Origin: a virus
Reading direction: 5' to 3' (one strand)
DNA: 64,000 nt
IMG/VR virus record: IMGVR_UViG_3300028800_000074
Span: 15,132-79,131 of that record
Position numbers and translations under genes: made by a program. Positions 4,455 through 25,444 of the stretch are shown piece by piece. The first letter of the stretch is position 1. Each line of letters begins with the position of its first letter. Below the pieces are notes generated by a model. It searched no databases. It saw nothing but the letters and a program-made list of their open reading frames with translations, and was not told where the DNA came from.

Positions 4455-4517
4455 AACCCTCTTGCGGACCGTTTTCAGTTGTGCTTCCGATGATCGCGGA
4501 AAGGGCGAATCATCATC

Positions 4518-5257: not shown

Positions 5258-7399
5258 ATGAAGGCCAGTCAGCTTCTTGCCGCTGCGTCCCTCCTCCTCG
5301 CCATTGGCGCGGAGACGCCAGCCTTCTCATATCCAGCAGGCTACGGCCCTCCAGCTTTGCCGTCAGCCTCGTTGCCGATCAGGCCGGAGTGCCTTCAGCC
5401 GCCGACGAGCTTCACCAACGTCTGGCACTTCGACGCGGTGAACGGCAAGCCGCCGAACTACCTTCAGGTCGCGGGCGCTTACGGCCCGATCATCATGTCG
5501 CCGACGACTGTCCCTACCGGGCAGACCATGAAGGCCTATATCGCCACATGGAACGGCTCAGCTTGGACGCAGGTGCTGACCACGTTCACCGCTGGTCAGG
5601 TCATCCCGGTCAGCGGCAACGGCTCTCTGGCCGCGCCTTGGAACGACGTGTCGGCCGTCATGTGGGCGAGCGCGAACGCCAAGGCTGGATACAGGTGGCC
5701 GCTGCTCGCGACCGTCCCGAGCTACCAGTACGTGGTCGGCAAGGGCTATGTCTATGCCAACGGCGGCGTGAACGGCGGCGTCCAGCAGTCGGGCCCGATC
5801 CTGCCCGGGGACGAGATTTTACTCGCGACCGGGAACTATGGCGCGGTCAGCTTCAATCTTCCGACCATCGAGGTCGTCAACAGCGGCTTCGTGACGATGG
5901 CCGCCGAGCCGGGGCAATCGCCCGTGATCGCGTCGCTTGTCCTCGCCGACACCAACAAGTGGCATTTCGACGGGATCAAGTTTCAGTCGATGGCGGGCGT
6001 CCTTGCCAGCGTGAACGACGGCGGCGGCGCGGCTGACCAGTTCGGCAACCCGCTGGTCACCAGCGACATCATCTTCACTGCAACTGACTTCTCCAACGTC
6101 GACGACTTGGTCGCGAACGGGTGGACGCAGGTCCAGTGGCGCAGCGCAACGAGCGGCTTCCAGTCGCAGGGGAGCAACGACGGCGCGAATACGAGATGCG
6201 TCTCGGTCCTCGCCAGCCATGCCCACAATCTGCATGAGGGCATCACGATCAATTCGAACTACTCGGTCGCGTCCTATGACGAGATCAACCGGTTCACTGA
6301 CAACGCCCTGAGCCACGATGGCTCGTATCAGATTTTCGACGTCAACTTCACGCATGACCCGGTCGACGTTGGGCTCGCGTACCACGTTGACGGCTCGCAG
6401 CAGGAGGGCTTCGCGCTTCTCCCCGGGCAGACGTGGATCACCTACACCGACATCGAGAAGAACAACGGCCTCTTCATCGATCATTACGATCCGACGAGCC
6501 CGTTCGCCACGATCTGCATGACGGGGATGGATGACTACTCCGGCGTCGGCTACGTCATCGTCAAAAATCTGCGCATCCAAAACAATGTTCATATCTCGTG
6601 CGGGACTGGTGAACTCTACGAGCTGAACATCCAAGACTCGATCATCTCGAACAACACGGTTGTCCCAACGAACCCGGCGCAGAACCCCCTCCCGGGTATC
6701 TCGCTGACGCTGACGAACAATTCAAACAGCCGGGTTTGCAACAACATCGCGCCGAACATCGTCGTCGCCAACAATCAGCCCGGCGTCACGTTCGACAACA
6801 ACGTCGCCGTTCAGTATGCGGCCTATATCCAGAACGCCGACGGCTCATGGCCCGCGAGCGCGAGCTTCCTTCAGGCCTATGGCTGGTGGGACACGACCGG
6901 CCACTACAGCGCGACGCAGACGGCCGCCGCCAACAACCAGACGATGTCGATTGCGTCGTTCATGGCGCTCTTCAATCAGGCTCCGACCGGCGTCCCTCCG
7001 ACCTATGACGTCTCGCTCAAGCCGGGCGCAACGACCAACGGGTCGGCGAGCTGCGGTCCGCAGACGAACACGGCCGGGCAGCTTCGCGCCTACTGGGTGA
7101 ACTACACTGCGGCCGAGACGGCGGCGATGGCGCAGGACGCGATCTCGGCTGGAGACCTTACTGCGGCCAATGTGGCGACGCAGACGGCGAACGCGTCGGC
7201 CTCGACGGCGGCGACGGACGATCAGGCCACGGCTGCGGCCAAGGCGATCTCGGACGCTGCCGACGCTCAGGCGGCGACGGACGCTCAGACGGCGGCTCAG
7301 GCAGTCACCACGTCGAACGCGGCTCAGGCTCAGGCCGCCACGCTTGACAACGCGGCGGCTGCGGCCGGTGCCGCGCCTATGGCCCCCGGCGCATACTGA
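5258..7399 (+). CDS. Exported right-handed beta-helix (pectin-lyase-like) protein with Ala-rich C-terminal tail
   Basis: N-terminal signal peptide; PGDEILLATGNYG motif; Asn-ladder repeats (IQNNV, IISNNTV, VCNNI); 6 Cys. Confidence 0.75.
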   Translation: MKASQLLAAASLLLAIGAETPAFSYPAGYGPPALPSASLPIRPECLQPPTSFTNVWHFDAVNGKPPNYLQVAGAYGPIIMSPTTVPTGQTMKAYIATWNGSAWTQVLTTFTAGQVIPVSGNGSLAAPWNDVSAVMWASANAKAGYRWPLLATVPSYQYVVGKGYVYANGGVNGGVQQSGPILPGDEILLATGNYGAVSFNLPTIEVVNSGFVTMAAEPGQSPVIASLVLADTNKWHFDGIKFQSMAGVLASVNDGGGAADQFGNPLVTSDIIFTATDFSNVDDLVANGWTQVQWRSATSGFQSQGSNDGANTRCVSVLASHAHNLHEGITINSNYSVASYDEINRFTDNALSHDGSYQIFDVNFTHDPVDVGLAYHVDGSQQEGFALLPGQTWITYTDIEKNNGLFIDHYDPTSPFATICMTGMDDYSGVGYVIVKNLRIQNNVHISCGTGELYELNIQDSIISNNTVVPTNPAQNPLPGISLTLTNNSNSRVCNNIAPNIVVANNQPGVTFDNNVAVQYAAYIQNADGSWPASASFLQAYGWWDTTGHYSATQTAAANNQTMSIASFMALFNQAPTGVPPTYDVSLKPGATTNGSASCGPQTNTAGQLRAYWVNYTAAETAAMAQDAISAGDLTAANVATQTANASASTAATDDQATAAAKAISDAADAQAATDAQTAAQAVTTSNAAQAQAATLDNAAAAAGAAPMAPGAY

Positions 7400-7410
7400 C
7401 CATCTGATCG

Positions 7411-10400
7411 ATGGCAGCGCGTAAGCGGCCGACCTCATCCCCCCGGGTGAGGCCCGGCATCCATATCTCGGCGGCCCTCCAGTCCCGTATCCTGCGGGCC
7501 AAGGACGGTCCGAGCTACGACCCGTTCAAGCCCTACGTTCACGATCAGGCGCTGCACCCGCCCGGCGTAACGATGGCGATGGACGACGCCTACAACTCCT
7601 TCAGCCCGACGGCTGGGTGGTCGGTCCGCAGCCTCGGCAGCGCTATCGCCGAGGGGCAGGTCTTCCTCGGCTACCCGACCTTGGCCGCGTTGCTTCAACG
7701 CGTCGAGTACATGAACGCGGTCATGTCCTACGCCGACGACATGACGCGGAAGTGGATCGAGTTCAAGGCGAGCGCCGGGACCGACAAGCAAGAGCGCATC
7801 GACGCGATTACAGACAAGTGGGACGCGCTTCAGGTGCAGGCGCGGATGAAGGATCATATCGCGCAGGCTCTCGGCTTCGGACGGGCGCACGTCTATCTCG
7901 ACACGGGCGACACCGATAATCCGGACGAGCTGAAGAAGGACATTGGCGACGGCGCTCGGTCTGCCGCCACGGCGTTCAAACTCCCGGGCAAGAAGGTGCT
8001 CGGGCTCAGGACGATTGAGCCGGTCTGGGTCAGCCCGCACGACTACGAGACCTCGAACCCGCTCAAGCCGAACTGGTACAAGCCCAACGCTTGGCACGTC
8101 ATGGCGCGCGAGGTTCATGCGAGCCGTCTTCTGACGACCATCCCGTTCCCGGTCTCCGACTTGCTCAAGCCCGCCTACTCGTTCGGCGGCATCCCGCTCA
8201 TCCAGATGGGCAAGCCATACGTCGACAACTGGCTGAACGTCAGACAGTCGACGACCGACATCGCCGAGGCCTACTCGATCTTCGTGCTTGCGACGAAGTT
8301 GCAGGACACGATGGCTGGCGGCAACGGAGACCAAGAAGTCCTCAACCGCGTGGCGCTCTTCAATCGATACCGCTCTAACAAGGGCACGATGGTCATCGAC
8401 AAGGAGACCGAGGACTTCAAGAACATCTCGGCCAATGTGTCCGGCATCGAGGCGATCCAAGCCGCGTCGCAGGAGCATATGAGCGCCGCATGGCGCATCC
8501 CGCTGGTCAAGCTCACCGGCATCTCGCCGTCCGGGCTCAATGCATCGAGCGAGGGCGAGATCAGGGTCTATTACGACCTGATCCGGAGCATGCAGGAAGG
8601 CCTCATCCGCCCCCTGCTCCAGATCGTCCTCGACTTCACGAGCATCGAGCTGTTCGGCGACGTCGATCCGGATATCACGTTCGACTTCGTCAAGCTCTTC
8701 GAGGTCACCGAGGTTGAGGCGGCCCAGATCAGGTCGGCCGATGCGCAGACCGGCACGGCGCTCATCCAGTCCGGCGTGATCTCGACCGAGGAAGAGCGGG
8801 CCCGCGTCTCCAACGACCCGGACAGCCCGTACATCGACCTCAAGGACACGCCGATCCCAGTCATGCCGGGCCCAGCCCCGGGTGAAGAGGGCTACGTCGG
8901 CGATCCGGATAACTGGCAGACCGCCCTCGAAGGGATCAACAAGCTCGGCGGCCTCCTGCCAGCGCCGGAGCCCGAGCAGCGCGCCTCACCCGGCGCATGG
9001 GAAGGGGTGCTCAAGGGCGTTCTCGCCAACGGTGGGCTTGAGAACCCGGACAACGACGGCATCGTGGCCTCCCCCGAGGCATGGAAGGCCGTGGGGGCGG
9101 GTTTGTCCGCTTCCGGGGGTCTCAGCACCCCAGACGGCTCCGAGGCCGTCCAGCAGCCTCTTGAGCCCGCCATAAGGCAGGTGTTCGGCAAGGACGCGCT
9201 CGAAGACGAGCCGCGCAAGGGTGCCGGGCAGGCTGGCGGTGGCGAATGGACGGCTCAGAGCGGCGGCGGCGCTCAGAAGTCCGCGCCCGGGAAAAATGGC
9301 ATTATTGCCGGTAATAATCCGGCCAAGCGTCCCCACGTCGCGCACTATGATCCGAAGGCGACGCAGGTCGACGCACAGGGCGTGGTTCACACCACGTCGG
9401 TCGTCGACGCCGCCCGGGCGCTCTATGACGGCAAGAAGGTCGACCTCAATCAGCCGAGAGAGGTCGCAACACTCGTCGACCATCTGGGCCAAGTCGCGAA
9501 GCATATGATCGCGATGGGCGATGCTGCGCCGAACTTCAACCTGTGCAACGTCAGCGTCGACAACACGAACATCTTCTGTGCGGTGAGCGAGGGCATCCCT
9601 CGCATCGACATGCCGCAGCTCCCGCCGAACCTGCACCCGTTCTTGTCGTTCCTCGGCGAGAAGGGTCTCGGCTTCCAGCCCGCGATGGAAAAGGCTGGCT
9701 ACCTCAGGGCGACGCAGAACGAGCTGATCGGCGCTAAGGTCGCGGCTATCGCCAAGGCGTTGCAGAACATCGATCCGCGCAAGCTCGACCCGCTCGTGGT
9801 CAGCAAGGACAACTATATCGTCGACGGTCACCATCGCTGGTCGGCGGAAGTGGCGATCTCGGCTGAGCAAGGCAACTTCGACCGGCCGCTCGAAATCTAT
9901 CGCGTCAACAGCGACATCTTGCCGCTGCTCAAGCTCGCCAACGACTTCACGGGCGGCAAGGGACATGTCGCCGGATCGCTCAAGCCGGGCGAGGCTGCGC
10001 TGAACCTGAAGACCGAGAACCATTTCCTTGATGGGGAGACCCACGCGCACGACGGCCGCCCTTTTGGCCTTGACGAGGCTCGACCGAATCAGGCCATGGA
10101 TGACTTCAGCCCGTCAGAACCGCGCAAGGGCGTGGGACAGGCTGGTGCAGGGGAGTGGACGGCGGAGGGTGGGGCTGCGGCTCCTTTTGGCAAAGGCAAG
10201 CAATCCGAGCCTTCCGCCGCTTCTCTAAGCGACAAGATCGTCTCAACCCGGAACGTGACAGCCAAGTCCACCAAGGGCGAGGCCGAGGGCAAGTACCTCC
10301 GCATCGACACCGATGCGATGAAGGCTGACCCTGAGCTGTTCAAGCACAACGTCGGCCTCTTCAAGCGCGGCGACCTCTACCCCGGTATGAAGCCCGACGA

Positions 10401-11496
10401 ACTGAAGGGCTCCGAGCAAGAGGTCGCCAAGGCCGTCATCGAGCGCATGCGCGACAACCTCGACTTCCTCGTCGGGATGGTGCCGAAGGACAAGATCAAG
10501 GCGTGGGCGCACTGGTATGAGGGGGCGCACAAATTCGCAGAGGACTTCGGCAAGAAGTATGGCGTCGACACGGCGAGCGCGGCAGGCGTGATCGCGGCCC
10601 TCTCGCCGCAGAGGCCGTGGGACGAGAACGTCTACTTCGCGGATCGCGTGATGGACATCATGAAGAACCATCCCCACGACAAGTGGGACGACGCGATGAA
10701 GTCGACCGGCGAGAGGATTTGGACGAGCGCCAAGAACGCGCCGATCCTGAAGGCCATCGAAGGCAAGCGCCTCGACGAACTTGACGACCCAGTCGCTCAG
10801 GCGGCGTGGATCAGGACGTGGAACGAGGCGCACGAAGACCGCAAGTTCGAGATCGCGAAGCCGGACGGCACGTTCGGCGGCAAGATGAAGACGGCGGCCG
10901 GAGGCTATGACACCGCGTCATGGGGATCGCTTGCGCAGACCGTGAACGCGATCCACGCTTTCCAGAGCGGCGGCGACCCGAAGAAGCTCTCCGCAATCTT
11001 GGGTGAGAGACACAAGGTTCGCAGCTTCTACAACAACATCATCGCCCCTGATGATCCTAACGGCGACGTGACGGTCGATACGCATGCTGTTGGAGCGGCG
11101 TGGTTGCAGCCGACCTCGGGGACTTCCGCTTCGGTCTGGCACAACCTAGCTAACAATCCGGGCGCAGAGGGCAAGGACCCGTTCCGGCCGAAGAACTGGG
11201 TAGCAGCCAAGGGCTCGGCGAAGCTCGGCGTGAGAGGCACGTATCCGCTCTATGCCGACGCCTATCGAGAGGCGGCGAAGGATTTGGGGCTCAAGCCCCG
11301 CGAGGTTCAGTCGGTCGCGTGGGAGATGAAGCAGCGCCTGTTCAGCGACAAGCTGACCGGCGAGAGGGTTCAGAAGGCCGTCAACGAGGTCTGGGAAGAC
11401 TACCGTGACGGCAAGCTCTCGCTGAAGGATGCGCGAGAGAAGGTAGTCTCGGTCGCGACGGCTATGCGCCCCGACCACAAGATCGACTTCAACTGA
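7411..11496 (+). CDS. Portal protein (DUF1073 type) with two fused C-terminal cargo domains (ParB-like; HhH-glycosylase-like)
   Basis: DMTRKWI, VHASRL, RIPLVKLTGISPSGLNASSEGE...YYD portal motifs in aa 1-490; IVDGHHRW; WY...AGVIAALSPQ...KVRSFYNN...VTVDTH. Confidence 0.9.
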   Translation: MAARKRPTSSPRVRPGIHISAALQSRILRAKDGPSYDPFKPYVHDQALHPPGVTMAMDDAYNSFSPTAGWSVRSLGSAIAEGQVFLGYPTLAALLQRVEYMNAVMSYADDMTRKWIEFKASAGTDKQERIDAITDKWDALQVQARMKDHIAQALGFGRAHVYLDTGDTDNPDELKKDIGDGARSAATAFKLPGKKVLGLRTIEPVWVSPHDYETSNPLKPNWYKPNAWHVMAREVHASRLLTTIPFPVSDLLKPAYSFGGIPLIQMGKPYVDNWLNVRQSTTDIAEAYSIFVLATKLQDTMAGGNGDQEVLNRVALFNRYRSNKGTMVIDKETEDFKNISANVSGIEAIQAASQEHMSAAWRIPLVKLTGISPSGLNASSEGEIRVYYDLIRSMQEGLIRPLLQIVLDFTSIELFGDVDPDITFDFVKLFEVTEVEAAQIRSADAQTGTALIQSGVISTEEERARVSNDPDSPYIDLKDTPIPVMPGPAPGEEGYVGDPDNWQTALEGINKLGGLLPAPEPEQRASPGAWEGVLKGVLANGGLENPDNDGIVASPEAWKAVGAGLSASGGLSTPDGSEAVQQPLEPAIRQVFGKDALEDEPRKGAGQAGGGEWTAQSGGGAQKSAPGKNGIIAGNNPAKRPHVAHYDPKATQVDAQGVVHTTSVVDAARALYDGKKVDLNQPREVATLVDHLGQVAKHMIAMGDAAPNFNLCNVSVDNTNIFCAVSEGIPRIDMPQLPPNLHPFLSFLGEKGLGFQPAMEKAGYLRATQNELIGAKVAAIAKALQNIDPRKLDPLVVSKDNYIVDGHHRWSAEVAISAEQGNFDRPLEIYRVNSDILPLLKLANDFTGGKGHVAGSLKPGEAALNLKTENHFLDGETHAHDGRPFGLDEARPNQAMDDFSPSEPRKGVGQAGAGEWTAEGGAAAPFGKGKQSEPSAASLSDKIVSTRNVTAKSTKGEAEGKYLRIDTDAMKADPELFKHNVGLFKRGDLYPGMKPDELKGSEQEVAKAVIERMRDNLDFLVGMVPKDKIKAWAHWYEGAHKFAEDFGKKYGVDTASAAGVIAALSPQRPWDENVYFADRVMDIMKNHPHDKWDDAMKSTGERIWTSAKNAPILKAIEGKRLDELDDPVAQAAWIRTWNEAHEDRKFEIAKPDGTFGGKMKTAAGGYDTASWGSLAQTVNAIHAFQSGGDPKKLSAILGERHKVRSFYNNIIAPDDPNGDVTVDTHAVGAAWLQPTSGTSASVWHNLANNPGAEGKDPFRPKNWVAAKGSAKLGVRGTYPLYADAYREAAKDLGLKPREVQSVAWEMKQRLFSDKLTGERVQKAVNEVWEDYRDGKLSLKDAREKVVSVATAMRPDHKIDFN
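8902..9126 (+). repeat. Three 28-aa (84-bp period) repeats PxxWxxxxxGxxxxGGL in the portal linker
   Basis: Trp codons at 8914, 8998 and 9082, exactly 84 nt apart. Confidence 0.8.
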
Positions 11497-11965: not shown

Positions 11966-12309
11966 GATCGCAACTGATCATCGTGTTCACGGTCGCCTCT
12001 CTGGGCCAATCGGCCTCAGCGCACGCTGGCGACTGGACCGCGCAGGTCGTCGAGCGAACGCAAGGCGGGCCAGCGGCGGTCTGTAACGGTGAGCAGAGGA
12101 TCGTCGTCACGAAGAAGCGTGACGGCACCTTCGTCATCGACGGGCCGACCTGCCTTGTTCCAAGAGCGCCTGCAAATAGCTGGGCTCCTCCGCCTCCGAG
12201 GCCGCCGAGCAAGACGGTCCCTCGAAGGGTCTACCACGAGCGCTATGAGCGGCCTCACCACAAGGGTCGCGCAGGGCTGTTCGACTTCCTGTTCGGTAAG
12301 CACCAATGA
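11962..12309 (+). CDS. Exported small protein (signal peptide, 2 Cys, Pro-rich tail)
   Basis: MRSQLIIVFTVASLGQSASAHA|G. Confidence 0.7.
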   Translation: MRSQLIIVFTVASLGQSASAHAGDWTAQVVERTQGGPAAVCNGEQRIVVTKKRDGTFVIDGPTCLVPRAPANSWAPPPPRPPSKTVPRRVYHERYERPHHKGRAGLFDFLFGKHQ

Positions 12310-13976
12310 ACACGCCCGGCTCCATCGCCGTCCTCAAGTTCATGACGGAGAACGACATCCCGCTCACCCGGGAGAACTTCGTCAACACGAACTGGGGCGG
12401 CAACCCGCCTCGCCCGTGGGACGCCGAGGCCGAAGAAGAGATACCACTGGAGCTGGCCGAGTTCGGCGAGCCGGAAGAGAACCGCGAGCTTCTGGAAGAC
12501 CGTGGCGACCTCGCTGGCGACGACTGGGCCGTGATGGCATCCGGCAAGATCGTCGAAGTCCCCGCTGGCACCAAGGCTGGCGACACAGCCCCGGACATCT
12601 GGGCCAAGGACGCCTTCGACCCGCAGGAGCCGCGCAAGGACGACGGCGAGTGGACGTCGGGAGGCGGGGGCGGCGGAGCGAAGGCTGAGAAGGAGCCGGT
12701 CGTCGACGTGCCCGCATATGAGTGGGCGAAGCGTCAGATCGACAAGCACACGAAGAACAGCAAGCTGCGCGCCAAGCAGCACGAGTGGATGGCGCGGCAC
12801 AAGCAGAACGTCGACGCCTTCTTCAAGAAGAGCGACATCAAGGTCGCGCTCGACAAGGTCGCCAAGGATGCGACATCGACCACGTCGTTCACCGTCGGCG
12901 CGGCGCTCAATAAGGGCGCGGACGTCGTCTCTGATGCGCTTCAGGACGCCTTGATCGCGGTGGCGGTCGGAGCTGGCGTCGCAGCCTTCGGCGTCGGAGG
13001 TTGGCAGGTCGCAGGATCGGCGGCGCTCGCTTACGCGGTCGAAGAGCTTGGCGACTGGCTCGGGCTCACGCCGGAGAACGCGGTCAAGCTCATCAAGGCC
13101 GGAGTGCAGGAGATCGGGAAGGCGCTGAAGAAGCGCCCCCAGAAGGACGAGAACGACGACGGGATGTTCAGCCTTCTGTCGGCTCTCCCGTGGGATCACC
13201 CGGTCGACCCGAAGACGAACCCGTTCATCGAAGGCGAAGAGTTCGTGTCTCCGAACGTCAAGACTGGTCTCGATCTTCAGGACGCGATCAAGGAGACGAC
13301 GTCGCCGCGCCACAAGACGATGATCAAGGCGGCGCGCGACATCAACAAGCTCATCGGCTTCGAGAGCGAAGAACACTCAGCGATTGGCGCTTGGCTCGAC
13401 GGCGCAGAGAACAGCGTGATGTCTGTCACGCACGGCGCGACCATGGCTCAGCTCAGGACGGCGGCGGCGATGGAGGGGGCGCTTGCAAACCAGCGCTCGG
13501 TGATGATCGTCAACGAGAACGTCGGCGGCAAGGGGCTGCTCTATCACTTCGACGTCAAGGGCGACGTTCAGTCGATCCACGACGGCTTGCTGGCGAGCGG
13601 CGTCGAGTTCCACACCATCGTTCCTTCCGCCGACGGCAAGTTCACGGTATATGTCGCCTCGGCTGATTCGTCACAACGAGAGTTCAAGGCGGTTCAGAAG
13701 GCGGCGGAGCGCTTCAATGCCAAAGTCGAGTACCACAGGGTCGACGCCGAACTCGTCGGATCGGACAAAGAAGACGGCACCGACGCCGAGCAGCGAGAAG
13801 ACGCCCAGTCCCGTTACGGATCAATCATTGAAGGCGGCGGGGTTCAAGGAGCCAAAGCCATCTGGGGCCGGGTTTATTCTCGGTACAAGGCCGCCTTCGA
13901 AGACAGAGCCGTAAAGAAGCCTCGTGAAGAGAGGCCGCCGTGGCGGACGCAACAGGCTGAGGGGGCGAGAGCGTGA
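12306..13976 (+). CDS. Putative internal head/cargo protein carrying the EPR-GEW tag
   Basis: WAKD|AFDPQEPRKDDGEWTSGGGGG at about aa 100; central hydrophobic hairpin; located between portal and MuF. Confidence 0.75.
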   Translation: MNTPGSIAVLKFMTENDIPLTRENFVNTNWGGNPPRPWDAEAEEEIPLELAEFGEPEENRELLEDRGDLAGDDWAVMASGKIVEVPAGTKAGDTAPDIWAKDAFDPQEPRKDDGEWTSGGGGGGAKAEKEPVVDVPAYEWAKRQIDKHTKNSKLRAKQHEWMARHKQNVDAFFKKSDIKVALDKVAKDATSTTSFTVGAALNKGADVVSDALQDALIAVAVGAGVAAFGVGGWQVAGSAALAYAVEELGDWLGLTPENAVKLIKAGVQEIGKALKKRPQKDENDDGMFSLLSALPWDHPVDPKTNPFIEGEEFVSPNVKTGLDLQDAIKETTSPRHKTMIKAARDINKLIGFESEEHSAIGAWLDGAENSVMSVTHGATMAQLRTAAAMEGALANQRSVMIVNENVGGKGLLYHFDVKGDVQSIHDGLLASGVEFHTIVPSADGKFTVYVASADSSQREFKAVQKAAERFNAKVEYHRVDAELVGSDKEDGTDAEQREDAQSRYGSIIEGGGVQGAKAIWGRVYSRYKAAFEDRAVKKPREERPPWRTQQAEGARA

Positions 13977-14182
13977 CGCTCGAAGAAGAGCTTTTCAAAA
14001 GAGCGCAGCTTGAGGCTGAGGCGGATCGCATCCTCAGCATCGGCATCGCGCATAATCGAAAGGTGCAGCGAAACGCCAAGCGCCTTAAGCACTGGACTGG
14101 GGGCCGCCTCACCACGGCCGAGATCAATCAGATGACGGCTGAGATGAGGGCGAGGGCTGGTGACGGCAAGGTTCTCGGGTAA
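13973..14182 (+). CDS. Hypothetical protein
   Basis: GTGA overlap. Confidence 0.55.
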   Translation: MTLEEELFKRAQLEAEADRILSIGIAHNRKVQRNAKRLKHWTGGRLTTAEINQMTAEMRARAGDGKVLG

Positions 14183-15083
14183 GTGGTGCGGGCAGCCTTA
14201 CGGCAAGCCCAGCGTGCTGCTCACCCTTCCAAACCTCATGGGTCTCGACGCCAAGGCGTCAGGGAAGCCCGCTGGCGGCCGTCGGCCGTCCGTCGCGGTA
14301 GGCAGGCCCCTGCATCCGAACCTCGGTCTGGCGGCCTCCTATGGGGCGCGGCTGACCTCTCTGATCGACGAGATGCACCGGAGCGTTATCTATTGGCTCA
14401 AGGCCGAGTATCGAGCTAACCCACCAGCGACCATGGCGTTCGACGATCTCGCATCGAAGACACTGGCCGAGACGATGAAGGGTTTGGCGAAGCGGTGGCT
14501 AGGACGCTTCGATGAAATGGCGGAGAGGCTGGCCCGTTATTTCGCCCAGTCCGTATCCAAGCGGACCGACGACGCGCTCAGGAAGATTTTGAGCGACGGC
14601 GGCATGGCGCTCAGGGACTGGAAGACGACCGCCGCCCAGAAGGATGCGCTCGCGGCCATCGTCCACGAGAACGTGTCGCTGATCAAATCGATCCCGCGCG
14701 AGTATCTCGGCAAGGTCGAGCGCGACGTGATGCGGTCGGTCGCGGCCGGTCGAGACCTGAAGCAGCTCGAAGACGATCTTCAGGCACACTTCGGGGTGAC
14801 CCGAGACAGGGCTAGGCTGATCGCGGTCGACCAGAACAACAAGGCGACGGCGATGCTGCGCCGCGTCCGCGCCGTCGAGGCGGGCACGTTCACATGGGAG
14901 TGGATGCACTCCAGCGCAGGCAAGACGCCGCGCCCGACGCATCTCGCGGCCGGACGTCGTGGCCAGCGGTTCGACATCCGAGAGGGATGGTTCGATCCGC
15001 ATGAGGGCCGCAAGGTTCAGCCGGGCGAATTGATCCGGTGCCGATGTACTTGCCGACCGGTTTTCCCCGGCCTACCGTCCTGA
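14160..15083 (+). CDS. Head morphogenesis protein (MuF / SPP1 gp7 family)
   Basis: ENVSLIKSI, RARLIAVDQNNKA, PRPTH, PGELIRCRC. Confidence 0.92.
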   Translation: MTARFSGKWCGQPYGKPSVLLTLPNLMGLDAKASGKPAGGRRPSVAVGRPLHPNLGLAASYGARLTSLIDEMHRSVIYWLKAEYRANPPATMAFDDLASKTLAETMKGLAKRWLGRFDEMAERLARYFAQSVSKRTDDALRKILSDGGMALRDWKTTAAQKDALAAIVHENVSLIKSIPREYLGKVERDVMRSVAAGRDLKQLEDDLQAHFGVTRDRARLIAVDQNNKATAMLRRVRAVEAGTFTWEWMHSSAGKTPRPTHLAAGRRGQRFDIREGWFDPHEGRKVQPGELIRCRCTCRPVFPGLPS

Positions 15084-16940: not shown

Positions 16941-17043
16941 CGGGCTCTCTCTTTCGCTCAATGGCCAAAGATAATCGGACTACGTCCGAGCCGGATAGTT
17001 GTCACCCCTCGGAAACTACTCAAACGTCGCCACGGAGCTTGTG

Positions 17044-17394
17044 ATGTCTCTCAGCCCGCTCGTCGCGCTCTTGGTGTTGCTGGCCGCGTCTTCAGCTCAC
17101 GCCGAGAGCTACTGCGGGAAGCCTGAGAACGATGCGGTTCTCAAGCTCATCCCAGACGCCAAGATCGAGACGCTCACGAAGAGCCAGTTCTACTACGCGC
17201 TCGGCATCTGGAACGGACAACCTCCGATTGGGCGTGGACCGGACGACGTGGACGGCGCTGAGATCGTGACAAGCCCGGACGGCAAGAGAGCAGCGGTCTT
17301 GTTCACGCTGGGGCCGCTGTTGTGTGGAGGGATTGCTCCGGCTCCGCCTCAGGTCATCGAGATGATCCGAAAGATTGATGGAGGGGAGCTGTGA
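17044..17394 (+). CDS. Exported small protein (signal peptide, 2 Cys)
   Basis: MSLSPLVALLVLLAASSAHA|ESYC. Confidence 0.75.
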   Translation: MSLSPLVALLVLLAASSAHAESYCGKPENDAVLKLIPDAKIETLTKSQFYYALGIWNGQPPIGRGPDDVDGAEIVTSPDGKRAAVLFTLGPLLCGGIAPAPPQVIEMIRKIDGGEL

Positions 17395-17768
17395 TCCGCT
17401 GGGCCGTCGCGTTCTTGCTTCTTGCGTCGCCTGCCGTTGCGCATACGAACTGCGACGGGTCGAGCGCGAGCAAGGTCCAAGGGTGCTGCGGTCCGGAAGA
17501 CTCGCTCCATGTGAGTCCCGGCGACGTGAGCCGCGACGGCGACGTCTGGTACGTCAAGATCGATGGCGCGATGCACGCGCTGATCAACGGAGCTGGCAAC
17601 CCCATCCAGCTCATGCCGCAGGACGATCAGGGCCACGGCTCCTGCTACACGGTCTGGTACCGGCGCGAGGTCACGAAGGGCAGCAGCTCTTTCGATCCCA
17701 ACAATACGCACGGCGGAAGCGGTGATGTGTACCACTTCTACTGCTTCCAAGGACCATACACCTTTTAA
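17391..17768 (+). CDS. Exported Cys-rich small protein
   Basis: MIRWAVAFLLLASPAVA|H; GCCG...CY...YCF. Confidence 0.75.
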   Translation: MIRWAVAFLLLASPAVAHTNCDGSSASKVQGCCGPEDSLHVSPGDVSRDGDVWYVKIDGAMHALINGAGNPIQLMPQDDQGHGSCYTVWYRREVTKGSSSFDPNNTHGGSGDVYHFYCFQGPYTF

Positions 17769-18751: not shown

Positions 18752-18969
18752 TGGCTGACCCCGTGGTGACCCTCGTGCAGGGCGACAAGGTCTCCGACAA
18801 AGAGCGCGCCGAGTGGCACAAGCAGAACATCGCCAAGGCGGCAGAGACGCTCTTCGCCGCCATGGACCTCGCGGTCAGCGAGGACTTCGTCATCAACTTC
18901 CAGCCCACCATAAACATAGCGATCAAAAAGCACATGATCGCGGTGCTGGGCGTCGGGAGGATGTGGTGA
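18748..18969 (+). CDS. Hypothetical protein
   Basis: Overlap-coupled. Confidence 0.6.
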   Translation: MMADPVVTLVQGDKVSDKERAEWHKQNIAKAAETLFAAMDLAVSEDFVINFQPTINIAIKKHMIAVLGVGRMW

Positions 18970-19265
18970 CGGCGATTGGCGGATGGGACATCGTCCACGA
19001 GTGCGATGACGGCTATCACGTCGTCTGGCTCCTGAGCAACGACAAGGGCGAAGAGCTGGCGCACGCCGAGGGCTTCCGGCGCGGGGAGAACGGCGGGTAC
19101 GTCTGGTACCCCTACGCGATGGACCCGAGCGACCCCGAGCATCTGATCCGTCTCGGTCCGTCGGCGCACAGCGACATCGAACTCGTGAAGAAACAGTGCG
19201 AGGCAGTCATCGAGGGGTCCAAGAGCCCTTACGCGGACAGCGTCGCCTACGTGATCGGAGGTTGA
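18966..19265 (+). CDS. Hypothetical protein
   Basis: GTGA overlap, GGGAGG RBS. Confidence 0.6.
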   Translation: MTAIGGWDIVHECDDGYHVVWLLSNDKGEELAHAEGFRRGENGGYVWYPYAMDPSDPEHLIRLGPSAHSDIELVKKQCEAVIEGSKSPYADSVAYVIGG

Positions 19266-19268
19266 GGC

Positions 19269-19976
19269 GTGGGCAGCAACGGCAAACTCGGCATGGACGC
19301 TTGGAAGAAGGCGTTCGCGAAGGACTGCTGGATGAAGGGCGCGAAGGACGACAACGAGTCCATGGCGGCCGAGCAGGACGACAGCGGCGGCATGACCGGC
19401 GACGTCCCCGGCTTCGAGACCTCGCATGTGCCAACCTTCAGCCCCGAGGACTTCGAGCGCTTGGGCGCACGGAAGGCCAAGGGCAACGACGACGCCTATC
19501 GCGGATGGACGCCCGGTGGCGGTGCGCCACAGCCGATCACGACCAGATCAACTCCGGCAGCGCCTAAGCGCCCGGAGTACCGTGGGTGGACCCCGGGTGG
19601 TGGCGCACCGATGTCGAAGGACGGCATCGTGAGCGGCATCAAGAGCGCGGCGAAGTCGGCGTTCGCGGCAGCGAGGAAGCCTTACCCGTCGTCAACTCCG
19701 GGCGACCCGTTTCACCTTCCGAGCGCGACGCCGAAGAACGGCTTCTCGATGCGGAACGGTCGCGGCGCTCATGACTCGCCGACCGACAAGACGCCCGATC
19801 AACCGTCCGGCTTCGACAAGGGCGGCATGGTGCGCGGCATGGATTACCTGAAGAAGGGCCAGAGGCGTCTCGGCAAGGCTGGCGCGATGGACGTCATCCT
19901 GAAGACGAAGCGCCCCAGTAGTGGCGTCAGCACTTCGCTCCGGCACGAAGTAGAGGACTTGCAGGACTCGGTGTGA
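19269..19976 (+). CDS. Low-complexity protein with many [AGS]-x-D sites (putative internal head peptide precursor)
   Basis: GMD, AKD, AKD, GND, SKD, AHD, GFD, GMD, AMD; duplicated YRGWTPGGGAP; GGAGG RBS. Confidence 0.7.
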   Translation: MGSNGKLGMDAWKKAFAKDCWMKGAKDDNESMAAEQDDSGGMTGDVPGFETSHVPTFSPEDFERLGARKAKGNDDAYRGWTPGGGAPQPITTRSTPAAPKRPEYRGWTPGGGAPMSKDGIVSGIKSAAKSAFAAARKPYPSSTPGDPFHLPSATPKNGFSMRNGRGAHDSPTDKTPDQPSGFDKGGMVRGMDYLKKGQRRLGKAGAMDVILKTKRPSSGVSTSLRHEVEDLQDSV

Positions 19977-20390: not shown

Positions 20391-20551
20391 ACTGGGCGCT
20401 CGCTCACTTGCGCCATAAGATGCGCGTCAAGGGCTATGGCCTCGTTCGAGACCGGCGCAGATGGCGGAACGAGCGCAATCACTGGCGCGTGCGGCGACAG
20501 ATGATGTCGCTCTTCGAGGCGGCGGGATTTTTCGAGGCCGAGAGCCAATGA
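20387..20551 (+). CDS. Small Arg-rich protein
   Basis: ATGA overlaps at both ends. Confidence 0.55.
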   Translation: MNWALAHLRHKMRVKGYGLVRDRRRWRNERNHWRVRRQMMSLFEAAGFFEAESQ

Positions 20552-20790
20552 GCTTCAATGTTCAAGGATGGTCGAAGTGCTTCTCGCATGATTGCTGGAA
20601 GCCGAAGACTGCCGCGAAGGACGATTGGGGCGACTATCATCGGGTCGGTGGGATGAACTTCCCGACCGCGAAGACGGCCGAGCGCATCGATCACGCTGGT
20701 CTCAATAAGGAGACGCGCACTCCCGGGAACATGCGCGAAGACGAAGGTCTCGGCCAGTCCATCAGGGACGACCGGGACATGAGCTGGTAA
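20548..20790 (+). CDS. Small protein sharing the N-terminal motif of the 19269 gene
   Basis: WSKCFSHDCWKPKTAAKDD versus WKKAFAKDCWMKGAKDD. Confidence 0.65.
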   Translation: MSFNVQGWSKCFSHDCWKPKTAAKDDWGDYHRVGGMNFPTAKTAERIDHAGLNKETRTPGNMREDEGLGQSIRDDRDMSW

Positions 20791-20809: not shown

Positions 20810-23266
20810 ATGCGTCGACCTGTCGGGTTCGCCCGAGCGCTTGCGCTCGACGACTTCAATGCGGCTGAGCCTCGCGCCAACAATGGCCAGTGGGCAGCGG
20901 CTCCGGGCGGGGGCTTCACGCTCAGGCCAGACGCGGCCAGTGCCGCTACCCGTTACAGAAGGGCAACGGAGCGAGCGCAGTCTGCTCTGCCTGACGACGA
21001 CGAATATCAGCGTCTTCTGGAGCAGGGGCGGAAGCTCGAAGGCCTGAAGGCCGCCGTCCGCGATCCCCTGACCGGGAAGATCATGACCGGGCGTGATCAC
21101 AACGCGGCGTTCTACTCGCACGATAAGGATGCGCAGGCGCGCATCAAGGCGACACTGACGCCCGGACGAGACCCGGTGACGAACGTCGCGACCAATAGGT
21201 GGAACTACGAAGGGCCAAACGTCGGCTTTACTCGTGGTGGATCATTTTTCTCGCGTCAGCAGGTCGAGGACATGCTTAAGGCGCGCGATGATCAGGATTT
21301 ATCCGAAGCGCTTCACGGTGCCTCCTACGAGGATGTGCGCTCGAAGCGCAGTTCAATCGCCAGCACCATCGCCCGCTTCCATAATCGTGAGGGCGGAGAA
21401 CCCATGTTCGGTGGAGATCGAAGGAAAGTGTTCGCGCACGACGCAATCGATGCAGAGATGGCGTTCGATGAAGCCCAGACCACGCGATCTTATGATCCGT
21501 TCGGTCGGCTCAACCTCGACCTGACGCCGATCTCGAAGGCGACCGTCAATCCATATCAGGGGAAGGAAATCCCCGACTGGCAGAAGCTCAAGCTTGACCC
21601 CGAAAAGGTCTACATGCTGCTTCGCCATCCCGACGAACTGAAGCGCGCAGCCGCGAGCTTCAACAATGTGCCGCTGCTCTATCGTCACAAGCCGACGAGC
21701 GCCGAGAACCATCCACGCGATCTCGTTGTGGGGACGACCGGCGAGCGCGCAGTTTATCAGCACCCCTACCTCTACAACTCGATGTCCGTCTGGGACGACA
21801 ACGACGGCATCGAGGGCATCGAGAACAACAAGGCTCGCGCTCTCTCGTGTGGCTACGCCTATGACCCGGACATGAGGCCGGGCGTCTACGAGGGGCAGCG
21901 TTACGACGGCGTGATGCGCAACATCAGGGGCAATCACGTCATCCTCACAAAGGAAGGCCGCGCCGGGCCGGACATCATCGTTGGCGACTCAATGGAGAAC
22001 CTCAACATGGCAACTGCACCGAAGCTTTCTCCGGTGGCATTGGTCGCTCGAAGGGCGGTCAGGCAGCACCTTACGCCGCTCATGGCGGCCGACGCGGCGA
22101 TTGACATCACGCCCGCCTTCGTCGGCCTCAAGCAGCTCGACGAGCGATCCCAGCAGATCGTTCACGCGCGGGTCGGCCAGCTCGTGCGCGGCAAGCTCAA
22201 CGCGGCGCTGGCGATGGACGATGTGAGCGCCGGGCTCCGTGCGCTGCTCGAAGCGCTTGGCGGAGGCGGCGAGCCCGACATGGGCGGCGGCGTCGACGAC
22301 GTCTCCCCTCCCGGGACCGAGGCCGAGGGCATGCCCGAGACCGACCTCGCGACCGGCGCAGAGCCGGACACGATGCAGCTCGAAACCGACGCCGCTCCCC
22401 CGGAGGATACCTCTGGCGGCAACGACCCGCCTCCGATGCAGGGCGCTGGCGGCGATCCGGCTGCGATGGAGCAGGCGGGTCCGGCACCGCAGGGCGGCGA
22501 AGGCGCGGCAGGACCGATTGAGAAGGTCCGCAGCTACCTCATGACCGTCCTGAACCCCGCCGAGATGCAGCATCTCGAACTCCTCATCTCCGAAGTCGAC
22601 AGCGGCGACGGAGGGGAGCCGGACCCGACCATGCAGGCGGGAGGCTCAGAGAAGCCCGGTGGCGGCCATCCGCCGATGGCCGGTGCTGGTGGACCTCCCG
22701 GCCCCGACAAGGGCGCTGGCGGGCCTCCTATGGCCGCTGGCGGCCCTCCCAAGCCTCCCGGCGCTGGCGGACCTCCGCCGAAGCCCGGCGCGGGTGGGCC
22801 TCCCGATCCCAAGAAGCAAACCGGGGATAACCCCCCTCGAACCGCAGGAACGCCGCAGGTCGGCGGAAAGGACAGAAACATGGCAGGTGATCAGGCCTTC
22901 GTCAGCCGGGCCGACCTTCAGGCTGCGCTCGCGGCGAACGACAAGCTCCATCGTGAGCGTGCGGAAGCCCGGGCTTTCATCCGACCGTTTGTCGGGGAAC
23001 TCACCGGGCTCGCGATGGACGCGGCTCCGAACGACGTCATCAAGGCCGCGCTCAAGATCAAGGGCATGTCCGACGCCGACCTGAAGCCAATTCAGGACAC
23101 GGCCGCGCTCAAGCTCCTGCTCGGCGCTCAGTCGAAGGCCGAAGCGTCGCGTGAGAGAGCGCCCCGCATGGCGCTCGATTCGAAGGCGACGTCGAAGGAC
23201 GAGCCCTTCAGCATCGAGGCCGTCACCGGTCTCAAGAACTTCGGAAGGATCGGACGCGCGGCCTAA
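20810..23266 (+). CDS. Prohead protease (DUF2213 type)/scaffold with N-terminal tagged cargo domain
   Basis: TPISKATVNPYxGxEIP, LSCGYxY, YDGVMRNIRGNHV, GRAG; Gly/Pro-rich scaffold; N-terminal LALD|DFNAAEPRANNGQW. Confidence 0.88.
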   Translation: MRRPVGFARALALDDFNAAEPRANNGQWAAAPGGGFTLRPDAASAATRYRRATERAQSALPDDDEYQRLLEQGRKLEGLKAAVRDPLTGKIMTGRDHNAAFYSHDKDAQARIKATLTPGRDPVTNVATNRWNYEGPNVGFTRGGSFFSRQQVEDMLKARDDQDLSEALHGASYEDVRSKRSSIASTIARFHNREGGEPMFGGDRRKVFAHDAIDAEMAFDEAQTTRSYDPFGRLNLDLTPISKATVNPYQGKEIPDWQKLKLDPEKVYMLLRHPDELKRAAASFNNVPLLYRHKPTSAENHPRDLVVGTTGERAVYQHPYLYNSMSVWDDNDGIEGIENNKARALSCGYAYDPDMRPGVYEGQRYDGVMRNIRGNHVILTKEGRAGPDIIVGDSMENLNMATAPKLSPVALVARRAVRQHLTPLMAADAAIDITPAFVGLKQLDERSQQIVHARVGQLVRGKLNAALAMDDVSAGLRALLEALGGGGEPDMGGGVDDVSPPGTEAEGMPETDLATGAEPDTMQLETDAAPPEDTSGGNDPPPMQGAGGDPAAMEQAGPAPQGGEGAAGPIEKVRSYLMTVLNPAEMQHLELLISEVDSGDGGEPDPTMQAGGSEKPGGGHPPMAGAGGPPGPDKGAGGPPMAAGGPPKPPGAGGPPPKPGAGGPPDPKKQTGDNPPRTAGTPQVGGKDRNMAGDQAFVSRADLQAALAANDKLHRERAEARAFIRPFVGELTGLAMDAAPNDVIKAALKIKGMSDADLKPIQDTAALKLLLGAQSKAEASRERAPRMALDSKATSKDEPFSIEAVTGLKNFGRIGRAA

Positions 23267-23315: not shown

Positions 23316-24284
23316 ATGTCGGGCTTCCAGACCCAAGTCAATATCCAGCCCGCACTGGGTGTCGCGGGCGACTTTTGCAGCGCCAACACCCACAACACCT
23401 TCCAGTCCGGCGCAGGCGGCCTCGTCGCGGGCCCGGCTGGCGTGACCGTCGCCGCGTTCGCGTGGGTGACCTATCAGACGACGGATGACGCCTACGCTCC
23501 GGGCACGGTCAACAGCTTCGGCTTTGGACCACCGAGCGGCTTCATCCATCGCGAGATGCAGTCGCTGAACACCGTCTATCCGCCTTACGTCACCCCGGCT
23601 GGCGACAACACGATCCCGTCTGGCTTCCAGATCGGCTCGCTGTTCCGCTCCGGCGACTTCTTCATGACGAACAACGGGACCACGCAGGCGCAGCCGGGCC
23701 AGACGGCCTATGCGTTCCTCGCGACCGGCCTCGTCCGCTTCGGCTCGGCGAACACCACGACGTCGTCGACGACCTCGACCGTCTCGGCGCAGACCTTCAG
23801 CGTCACCGCGACGCTGAACAACAACATCATGACCGTCTCGAACGTCAGCTCGGGCTCGATCTACGCGGGCGCGACCATCTCGGGTTCGGGCGTGATCGGG
23901 TGCCAGATCGTCGGTCAGGTGACCCCGCTACTCGCGGGCGAGACCCTCGCTGGCGTCGGCCGCTACTACGTCAGCGCGGCCGAGCAGAACGTCGCCGTCG
24001 GCGTCACCGTCTCGGGCACCTACGGGTTGCTCACGCTCGGCGGCGCTCCAGCCACGCCGATCCCGATTGGCGCGTTCGTGAGCGGCGGCACCGTCGGCAA
24101 CCCCTGCTATGTCCGGCAGCTCATCTCGGGCACGGGCGGCGCGGGCTCGACCTACTCGGTCGACAACAACACCGTCTCTTCGTCGGCCACGCTCACCTTC
24201 ACGCTCGACGTGGCGACGAGCTGGGTTGCGGACTCGGCGGGAGCGCCCGGCGAAGTCGTCAAGACCCGCTGCCTGATCCCGTAA
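23316..24284 (+). CDS. Head decoration/cement protein with inserted beta modules
   Basis: MSGFQTQVNIQPALGVAGDF, GFIHRE, GDFF; directly before the capsid gene. Confidence 0.85.
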   Translation: MSGFQTQVNIQPALGVAGDFCSANTHNTFQSGAGGLVAGPAGVTVAAFAWVTYQTTDDAYAPGTVNSFGFGPPSGFIHREMQSLNTVYPPYVTPAGDNTIPSGFQIGSLFRSGDFFMTNNGTTQAQPGQTAYAFLATGLVRFGSANTTTSSTTSTVSAQTFSVTATLNNNIMTVSNVSSGSIYAGATISGSGVIGCQIVGQVTPLLAGETLAGVGRYYVSAAEQNVAVGVTVSGTYGLLTLGGAPATPIPIGAFVSGGTVGNPCYVRQLISGTGGAGSTYSVDNNTVSSSATLTFTLDVATSWVADSAGAPGEVVKTRCLIP

Positions 24285-24340: not shown

Positions 24341-25444
24341 ATGACCGTTCACATGAACCCGCAAGAGGCACGCGCCGCTTGGGCTCTGCATGCGCCCGAG
24401 TTCGCTCGCCTCGGTTTTATCGCGCCGGAAATCCAGTCCTACTACCCCTCTGGGATGAAGGAAGACTGGACGCTGGCGTTCGACGCGCAGCCTTCGCTCC
24501 AGTCCGACCCGAACTCGGCGCTGCCGGTGATGCTCACGACGATGATCGACCCAGAAGTCGTTCGCTTCGTCTTCGCGCCGACCGAGTTCGCCGACATCTG
24601 CGGCGAAGTCCGGAAGGGTACGTGGCTCGACGAGACGATCCTCTTCCCGGTCGTTGAACACACCGGCGAGGTCGCGCCCTACGGCGACGACTTCAACAGC
24701 GGCGCGTCCGGGGTCAACATGAACTGGCCCCCGAGGCAGAGCTACCTGTTCCAGATCATCAAGCAGTACGGACAGCGTGCGCTTGAGCGGGCGGGGCTCG
24801 GCAAGATCGACTACGTGAGCGAGATCGACAAGGCTGCGGCCGACGTCGTGAACCGCTTCCACAACCTCGCCTACGCGTTCGGCATCCTAGGCCTCATCAA
24901 CTACGGCATGTTGAACGACCCGGCGCTCCCGGCGTCGCTCACCCCGGGCGTCAAGGCGAACGGAAACGGCAACGTCTGGATTTTCAACAATCTGCCGAAC
25001 GCCAGCGCCAACGAGGTCTACAACGACATCCTCGCCCTCTACCAGTCGCTCATCTCGCGCACCTACGGCCTCGTCAACAAGAAGTCGAAGCTGACGCTCG
25101 TGATGTCGCCGGGTTCCGAGATGGCGATGGACTTCGCCAACGGCTTCAACGTCCACACGAGCGACATCCTCGCGAAGGCGTTCCCGAACCTCACGATCAA
25201 GACCGCGCCGCAGTACGGCGTGCTCTCTGCGGCCAACCCGCAGGGGATCACCGGGGGCAACTTCGTGCAGCTCTTCGCCGAGGAGTTCGAGGGGACCAAG
25301 ACCGTGATGGCCGCCTTCAACGAGAAGCAGCGCGCCTTCCCCATCATCAAGGAGATGTCGTCCTTCAAGCAGAAGGTCGCCTCCGGCGTGTGGGGCACCG
25401 TGATCCGACGGCCGCTCGCCGTCGCATCCATGATCGGGGTGTAA
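24341..25444 (+). CDS. Major capsid protein (DUF2184 type)
   Basis: LAFD|AQP, KGTW, VEHTGEVAPYGD, RQSYLFQ, YGMLNDP, GVWGTVIRRP. Confidence 0.93.
   Translation: MTVHMNPQEARAAWALHAPEFARLGFIAPEIQSYYPSGMKEDWTLAFDAQPSLQSDPNSALPVMLTTMIDPEVVRFVFAPTEFADICGEVRKGTWLDETILFPVVEHTGEVAPYGDDFNSGASGVNMNWPPRQSYLFQIIKQYGQRALERAGLGKIDYVSEIDKAAADVVNRFHNLAYAFGILGLINYGMLNDPALPASLTPGVKANGNGNVWIFNNLPNASANEVYNDILALYQSLISRTYGLVNKKSKLTLVMSPGSEMAMDFANGFNVHTSDILAKAFPNLTIKTAPQYGVLSAANPQGITGGNFVQLFAEEFEGTKTVMAAFNEKQRAFPIIKEMSSFKQKVASGVWGTVIRRPLAVASMIGV

Follow-up and report, generated by a model that had tools for sequence, protein, structure and literature searches.

What does a small gene without detectable homologues do in the middle of a phage head operon? 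The question is raised by open reading frame (ORF) A, which encodes 235 amino acids in the IMG/VR virus record IMGVR_UViG_3300028800_000074. Bases 15132-79131 of this 79,131-bp record (completeness estimate 91%) were analysed; this stretch of 64,000 nucleotides is called the window below, and positions without further indication refer to it. A preliminary description of the DNA had taken ORF A for a prohormone-like precursor, which a prohead protease would cut at nine [AGS]-x-D sites into a set of small internal peptides. We arrive at a different and still tentative reading: ORF A may be a disordered internal protein that enters the capsid and has its ends trimmed, with an N-terminal leader that it has in common with ORF B, a second small orphan of the same operon. 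We infer its packaging and cleavage, the sites used and the role of the mature piece from sequence statistics of a single genome.

The leader links the two orphans at the protein level. The pattern W-[KS]-K-x-F-x-x-D-C-W ... A-K-D-D is common to ORF A (residues 7-28) and ORF B (residues 3-26), which match in BLASTP with E=2e-4. Among all pairs formed by the N-terminal 35 residues of 86 proteins, ORF A and ORF B scored best (56, with 40 for the next pair), and none of 150 shuffles reached 56, their maxima being 39.3 ± 3.6. A helix is predicted at ORF A residues 7-20 (AlphaFold, low confidence), and both leaders end in AKD↓D, where the arrow marks a candidate cut. This end would match the specificity of the head protease, as judged from the enrichment of AKD in head genes and from Asp as the residue preceding the cut (P1), the latter known from phage TLS only. 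A likeness between GMDAWKK of the leader and GMDYLKK near the C-terminus was also considered and was not significant (p=0.45).

Three lines of evidence independent of ORF A indicate that small-x-Asp tripeptides mark proteins inside the head in this phage group. The set [AG][FMKL]D, which is based on proteins other than ORF A (their four junction sites and the site in the capsid protein), occurs 31 times in the head module of this genome versus 13.2 expected, and 22 times versus 26.8 in all other proteins. Taken singly, AKD is found 8 times in head genes (2.4 expected) and once elsewhere (3.6 expected), and AMD 7 times (1.1) and once (2.4), respectively. In 80 related viral contigs the motif was counted 384 times versus 129 expected in the protease-scaffold and 98 versus 44 in the capsid protein, as compared with 214 versus 224 in tail and other downstream genes and 2 versus 12 in the decoration protein, which is added externally; since homologous positions are included, the counted events are not independent. 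The scaffolds of the relatives are enriched 10.9-fold in AMD, 7.3-fold in AQD, 4.3-fold in AFD, 2.8-fold in AHD and 2.5-fold in AKD.

An experimental anchor is provided by TLS, the mature capsid protein of which has the Edman N-terminus ASDMGIW (PMC11447400); in the TLS capsid sequence this heptapeptide follows ...GAKND. The proteases of TLS (gp33) and PB1 (gp22) both belong to DUF2213, and Asp at P1 is plausible for the family, with TLS as its sole experimental anchor. In Pa193 the capsid model starts at residue 66 and the portal model at residue 94, and the first 93 portal residues are absent from LC-MS data (liquid chromatography coupled to mass spectrometry; PMC11456595). In PB1, the capsid protein contains SAMD64↓S, the portal VAMD76↓S and the scaffold RAMD↓S. 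In the phage studied here, capsid residues D48 and A49 are invariant in 22 relatives, the E217 capsid chain in the PDB starts at the residue aligned with A49 (just after LAFD48), and MAMD58↓DAY of the portal resembles VAMD↓SAY of PB1.

Two further observations concern candidate sites in the relatives. The protease-scaffold of relative L049 (6497-8965) copies the cleavage region of the capsid protein (10004-11098) with E=2e-4, the matching regions being FAMD↓NQPQLSATSPNGGIPAM in the scaffold and MALD↓AQPGLSATDPNSAIPAM in the capsid protein, so that the scaffold appears to mimic the capsid N-arm. PB1 (L082) gp20, a small ORF between MuF and protease (4277-4483), contains GKD↓P and KKAKD↓C; the latter recalls AFAKD↓C of ORF A and is too short for a homology call.

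The 235-residue frame, its 20 Asp, the nine named tripeptides and the quoted peptides were all found in ORF A as first described. The nine sites are GMD8-10, AKD17-19, AKD25-27, GND72-74, SKD116-118, AHD167-169, GFD181-183, GMD190-192 and AMD206-208, and the pieces between them are 8-51 residues long. Three motif sets, each defined without ORF A, were then applied to it. Six [AG][FMKL]D tripeptides were counted versus 0.91 expected (p=1.75e-4), which places ORF A first among 85 genes. It again ranks first for the tripeptides beginning with Ala or Gly that are enriched in the scaffolds of relatives (4 versus 0.57, p=0.002), and a leave-one-out x-x-D set taken from the other head genes of the genome gave 5 versus 0.95 (p=0.002), with 42 versus 33 for that set in non-head proteins. 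The top-20 tripeptide set of the relatives gave p=0.019. The six [AG][FMKL]D sites lie at both ends of the protein, D10, D19 and D27 within residues 8-27 and D183, D192 and D208 within residues 181-208. From this clustering we therefore predict terminal trimming and one piece of ~156 residues, and no string of small peptides.

The earlier statement that ORF A has no globular domain holds as far as it is testable: there was no Pfam, PHROG or NCBIfam match, a single-sequence AlphaFold model had a mean predicted local distance difference test (pLDDT) score of 51.8 with short helices only, and a fold search with this low-confidence model returned nothing at E<=0.001. ORF A matched only itself in a word-indexed search of 5.8 billion proteins and in an exhaustive phmmer search of 1.84 billion representatives; tblastn on phage records found no homologue, and the best score in the ESM Atlas, 0.77, was under the lead threshold. 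The homologue search for ORF B was likewise empty. Homologues with conserved sites and shuffled peptides, which had been proposed as a check, were not obtained in any of the searches. The description of several pieces as basic is borne out by residues 193-208 (net charge +4) but not by the large piece 28-183 (156 residues), which has a net charge of -1, being acidic to about residue 62 and basic at about residues 63-140.

Within this piece lie the two copies of YRGWTPGGGAP. They are 100% identical in protein and 73% in DNA: the 9 differences among the 33 bases all fall on third codon positions and affect 9 of the 10 that are degenerate. The earlier suggestion of selection on a peptide recoded at synonymous sites was borne out (P=2.6e-7 for random placement of the nine differences), and this pattern of substitution shows that the twin motif is under purifying selection. 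The dipolar charge and the conserved twin motif suggest that the mature piece would bind a partner rather than condense DNA in bulk; the proposal of DNA condensation is weakened, as the predicted main product is not basic.

Part of the twin motif recurs in other head proteins. W-[TA]-x(1-3)-GGG is present five times in the proteome versus 0.1 expected, and all five occurrences are in head-module proteins, namely the portal, a 556-residue orphan, the N-terminus of the protease and, twice, ORF A. In the first three it ends a junction tag, x-D↓[AD]-[FL]-x3-E-P-R-...-G-x-W-[TA]-...-GGG, that precedes cargo modules. The corresponding tag of the relatives, x-D↓..[FW].E..HPRD..G[KR]F...GGG, was found in portals and island proteins (10 clear cases versus 1 in a reversed-sequence control). 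A literature search found no paper stating a DUF2213 cleavage rule or describing the junction tag.

The tagged proteins themselves deserve a brief description. The portal domain ends at about residue 447-480 of the portal (7411-11496) and is followed by two further modules, opened by x-D↓..EPRK..GEWTA..GG at FGKD595↓A and QAMD897↓D, the second of which matches DUF7178. The protease carries an N-terminal extension of 218 residues (20810-21470) that is absent from all relatives; its first part reads LALD14↓DF..EPR..GQW..GGG, and it closes with MAFD220↓E immediately ahead of the DUF2213 domain, the start of which reads hydrophobic-A-[FLM]-D-[RKE]-x-[ST]-V-R in almost all of 68 relatives. The lengths of the N-terminal extensions in the relatives' proteases, between ~10 and 787 residues, suggest that cargo has been fused to these enzymes. 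The 556-residue orphan (12306-13976) shows WAKD102↓AFDPQEPRK..GEWTSGGGGGG after a small N-terminal domain and five [AG][FMKL]D tripeptides versus 1.7 expected; it has one relative (L061), in the C-terminal part only.

From these results, a sequence of events may be proposed. The leader (residues ~7-27, amphipathic and aromatic) would bring ORF A and ORF B into the assembling prohead, as the capsid-targeting sequence of T4 does. The protease, cutting after Asp in small-x-Asp contexts, would remove the leader, most likely at AKD27↓D28, a site conserved in ORF B, and would also trim the C-terminus of ORF A at at least one of D183, D192 and D208. A piece of ~156 residues with the acidic stretch, both copies of YRGWTPGGGAP and the basic helix would remain in the head and may exit with the DNA at infection. 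A more ambitious version appears rather unlikely to us: the W-K-x-F-x-x-D-C-W helix with AKD↓D would be a clip-off capsid address tag, read by an Asp-specific DUF2213 protease-scaffold, that loads orphans into the head, and the twin YRGWTPGGGAP would be a pared-down form of a docking element, G-x-[FW]-T-x-GGG, that is clade-wide and connects cargo with portals and proteases.

The genomic setting is that of a head operon. The head module was identified by Pfam and PHROG matches, and its genes are tightly spaced and co-oriented (Table 1). The protease-scaffold also has a PDB match to the Pa193 scaffolding protein gp24, and is presumed to be the enzyme that processes ORF A. In a scan of the operon of ORF A for promoters and terminators, signal counts were no higher than in shuffles. 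The proposal of processing by the head protease keeps its outline, given the head operon, the position just upstream of the DUF2213 gene, the enriched Asp tripeptides and the TLS anchor, but not its nine-site detail, the count of which is at chance level.

Table 1. Positions of ORF A, its parts and the surrounding head genes in the window.
Feature	Position	Strand	Remarks
Large terminase	2919-4454		Head module
Portal	7411-11496		Head module; 1361 residues, ~880 of them extra at the C-terminus
Orphan protein, 556 residues	12306-13976		Head module
MuF-like head-morphogenesis protein	14160-15083		Head module
Island of ~14 small orphan ORFs	15.1-20.8 kb		5.7 kb; includes ORF A
Shine-Dalgarno-like GGAGG	19258..19262	+	6 nt 5' of the GTG of ORF A; overlaps the end of the upstream ORF
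ORF A	19269..19976	+	GTG start; 235 residues; orphan; mostly disordered; rich in Gly/Ala/Ser/Lys/Pro/Asp
N-terminal leader of ORF A, residues 1-27	19269..19349	+	Three candidate Asp sites (GMD10, AKD19, AKD27); likeness to ORF B
YRGWTPGGGAP, copy 1	19497..19529	+	
YRGWTPGGGAP, copy 2	19578..19610	+	
Predicted helix, residues 117-133 (GIVSGIKSAAKSAF...)	19617..19667	+	Net basic; AlphaFold low confidence; charge profile
C-terminal candidate Asp sites GFD183, GMD192, AMD208	19809..19892	+	[AG][FMKL]D test
ORF B	20548..20790	+	80-residue orphan; GC content at third codon positions (GC3) 0.76; leader in first 26 residues
Protease-scaffold	20810..23266	+	818 residues; DUF2213 at residues 226-394 (Pfam E=4.7e-42); PHROG 'head maturation protease' (E=1.8e-95)
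XM1-gp53-like decoration protein	23316-24284		
Major capsid protein	24341..25444	+	PHROG 'major head protein'; LAFD48↓A49 opens the mature N-arm

The order portal, MuF, protease, decoration protein and capsid protein is kept in the 80 related viral contigs, in which the gap from MuF to protease ranges from ~40 bp to 6.4 kb. The island ORFs of this phage, ORF A included, have no homologue detectable by tblastn in these contigs or in 26 further metagenome and genome loci. Island ORFs of the relatives encode NUDIX, ADP-ribosyltransferase, GNAT, methyltransferase and ParA-like proteins and DUF6527, and some of their products open with an Asp site and tag, or with a leader followed by AKD↓AEPR. The interval between MuF and protease is a variable island in the relatives, with enzyme types that phages package.

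Several features of the island and the neighbouring genes were noted on the way. Two adjacent island orphans (16999-17394 and 17391-17768) have signal-peptide-like hydrophobic N-termini, which is unusual within a head operon. Leaders of a second type, S-E-x-Q-x-x-A-M-x-A-A-x-x-G-x-S-T-x-G-I-P-K-x-V-G-x-E-F, were seen in relatives L005/L006 (~7370-7590), L007 (5356-5985), L048 (~6311-7040) and L052; they form the N-termini of a protease, of a NUDIX-like island protein (then AKD↓AEPR) and of another tagged protein, and they may resemble DUF3008. A module of ~60 residues (..G.V.TV.AV.SG....G..L.G.GV..GT.I..Q.SGT.GG.GTY.VS..Q.V.S) recurs in the decoration protein and several downstream virion proteins of this phage group; it was noted in the decoration (23316-24284) and tail genes of the window and in relatives L012, L019, L025, L052, L069, L079 and L081.

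Several results count against a packaged, end-trimmed ORF A. The leader was found in no other protein of the genome and at none of 105 related loci, which leaves two carriers in one genome, and the islands of the relatives contain no ORF pairs that share a leader. The enrichment of ORF A is real for joint tripeptides but depends on the definition: a position-independent weight matrix built from the scaffolds of relatives gave no enrichment, and ORF A did not reach significance with log-odds matrices of the positions surrounding Asp, some of which were confounded by the composition of the scaffolds, while the others lacked strength. The tests with p=0.002 become borderline when corrected for 85 genes. 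As for the 'punctuation' by [AGS]-x-D, nine sites compare with 6.5 ± 2.0 in composition-preserving shuffles (p=0.15). The island ORFs of the relatives, as a class, have 22 motif sites versus 21 expected. The exact cut positions in Pa193 and E217 are deduced from the starts of the structural models. Finally, the link between ORF A and the junction tags appears to be a resemblance of the W-T-x-GGG core only, because hidden Markov models (HMMs) of the four tags of this genome and of ten tags of relatives miss the ORF A copies.

Alternatively, ORF A would not be packaged but would be an accessory protein, such as a moron or a factor for host takeover or anti-defence. Its site of action would then be the cytoplasm, its means two short linear motifs, the aromatic leader and the twin YRGWTPGGGAP, and its Asp tripeptides a side effect of composition or of a common origin with the neighbouring genes. 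We consider this somewhat unlikely. In its favour, ORF A lies in an island of orphan ORFs without homologues in related loci, and two of these ORFs look secreted, as is typical of accessory cargo; the island ORFs of relatives show no motif enrichment as a class, the weight-matrix test was negative, and strong purifying selection on an 11-residue peptide fits a partner-binding motif. Nevertheless, with three independent motif definitions ORF A comes first or close to first in the genome in its enrichment of head-type Asp tripeptides, and the sites cluster at the ends, beside a leader with the same AKD↓D end in a second protein. Moreover, the gene lies within the head operon, where promoter- and terminator-like signals are at chance.

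It is improbable, in our estimate, that ORF A is an auxiliary scaffold or core component that enters the prohead, aids assembly, is degraded at its Asp sites and is expelled before DNA packaging, with little or nothing left in the virion. Such a role would draw on the same motif and context evidence as the end-trimmed internal protein; disorder with short helices is found in many scaffolding proteins, and the protease-scaffolds of the relatives are the richest in the motif. The phage, however, already has a scaffold domain fused to its protease, ORF A is conserved in no relative although assembly factors usually are, and its 156-residue centre has few motif-fitting sites, so that full degradation is not predicted.

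The precursor of the preliminary description, in which cuts at all nine sites would yield about ten small peptides for DNA condensation or for use as injected inhibitors, seems to us more improbable still. All nine tripeptides are present, Asp at P1 is plausible for the protease family, and AHD and AKD are among the tripeptides enriched in the scaffolds of relatives. Against this stand the chance-level count of sites and the absence of GND, SKD and GFD from the head-enriched tripeptides, both here and in the relatives, and the net charges of the pieces are mostly near zero. The flanks of the twin copies also differ, with GND-DA before copy 1, KRPE before copy 2 and no Asp site directly after either. 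The prohormone picture fails because the YRGWTPGGGAP copies are not flanked by matching sites; those that fit the motif lie only at the ends of the protein.

That ORF A is a non-coding chance open frame is hardly credible: it has no homologue anywhere searched, and spurious long ORFs are common at 63% GC, but its GC3 of 0.84 with GC1 > GC2 is seen in its frame alone, a good ribosome-binding site precedes it, read in its frame, the two repeat copies differ by nine synonymous changes and no others, and ORF B carries the same leader in its protein sequence. ORF A is a genuine gene, because its GC3 is high and GGAGG stands 6 nt before its start; it would belong to a late operon. The GC content by codon position, 0.59/0.55/0.84, follows the pattern of the real genes of the genome, unlike that of shadow frames, and the overlap of GGAGG with the end of the upstream ORF is as expected for translational coupling. 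This upstream ORF (18963-19268, ~100 residues, probable GTG start at 18963) is in the same frame as ORF A, separated from it by a single TGA (...VIGG*GVGSNG...), so that readthrough would join the two proteins; the shared frame is a weak hint, as it arises by chance in one case out of three.

The phage is uncultured and known only from metagenomes; its genome is ~79 kb and its host is probably an alphaproteobacterium. Prophage relatives are found mostly in Bosea, Xanthobacter, Methylobacterium, Methylorubrum, Bradyrhizobium and Rhodospirillaceae, and the closest capsid relatives are 83% and 79% identical. The stretch turns up in rhizosphere metagenomes: 12 rhizosphere DNA runs contain some of its sampled words, 10 of them a quarter or more, and no RNA run is listed among the sequencing runs that contain it. 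A metagenome scan added one contig of 1.9 kb with 92% identity, which stops short of the island. Contigs from four rhizosphere runs are identical over 18.9-20.9 kb apart from one low-depth difference, C>A at position 19669 in one run, which would change Ala134 to Glu (A134E) inside the predicted basic helix; it is seen in a single contig at a depth of ~5 and may be an error.

The closest functional parallel to the proposed end-trimmed internal protein is offered by phage T4. The T4 internal proteins IPI, IPII and IPIII and the Alt protein carry a capsid-targeting sequence that is removed by the prohead protease gp21, and degradation of T4 core proteins gives rise to internal peptides. As in T4, a short N-terminal leader is common to otherwise unrelated proteins and ends in the preferred, here candidate, site of the head protease. 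By analogy, ORF A would also be non-essential, fast-evolving and lineage-specific, and its proposed fate is likewise entry into the prohead, trimming and retention together with the DNA. The differences are considerable, however. No similarity to the T4 internal proteins or their targeting sequence was found in phage records, PHROGs, Pfam or the 1.84 billion representatives; the protease belongs to DUF2213 instead of the T4 gp21 type; Asp rather than Glu would precede the cut; and the leader, with ~27 residues, is longer. Moreover, there are only two carriers, ORF A would also lose a C-terminal part, and the system is known here from sequence alone. What may be new, and we advance it with caution as an analogy, is the arrangement of a targeted internal protein of the T4 kind set in a different protease family.

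Phages TLS (T1-like; gp33, capsid gp36) and the Pbunaviruses PB1, E217 and Pa193 share with the present phage the DUF2213 protease-scaffold family, the order portal, MuF, small ORFs, protease-scaffold, decoration protein and capsid protein, and a mature capsid N-terminus that follows Asp. In contrast to the present phage, they have no homologue of ORF A, the leader or the twin motif, and their small ORFs at this position are unrelated in sequence. LC-MS of Pa193 virions detected the products of gp20 and gp21, the two genes that come next after portal gene gp19 (PMC11456595). Judged by gene order, they would probably correspond to the MuF protein and the first of the small ORFs. A further parallel is given by portal- and MuF-fused and polyvalent effectors (PMC5512222): the portal of this phage carries ~880 extra cargo residues, and cargo modules are joined by x-D↓...[HE]PR...G-x-[FW]-[TA]..GGG tags, the W-T-x-GGG core of which is present in ORF A. 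Unlike these effectors, ORF A stands alone, has no enzymatic or recognisable domain and is missed by the tag HMMs. The domains encoded in the islands of the relatives, NUDIX, ADP-ribosyltransferase and GNAT among them, overlap with those for which packaging and injection have been proposed (Iyer et al. 2017, PMC5512222).

Hundreds of cultured phages carry fusions of a DUF2213 protease with a scaffold; 543 phage records came from the capsid search alone, therapeutic Pseudomonas and Acinetobacter phages among them. ORF A and ORF B are small and simple candidate substrates with a common leader for an unstated, Asp-directed DUF2213 rule, and the leader could show whether a short tag suffices to load a foreign protein into such capsids. 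A non-packaged ORF A would be just another orphan accessory gene, of little wider interest. If ORF A is packaged, the interval between MuF and protease would be further supported as a fast-changing locus for proteins delivered together with the DNA. Should the address tag also prove true, it would provide a compact, transferable cargo-loading system and a cleavage rule, open to direct testing, for a family of proteases that is very large and uncharacterised.

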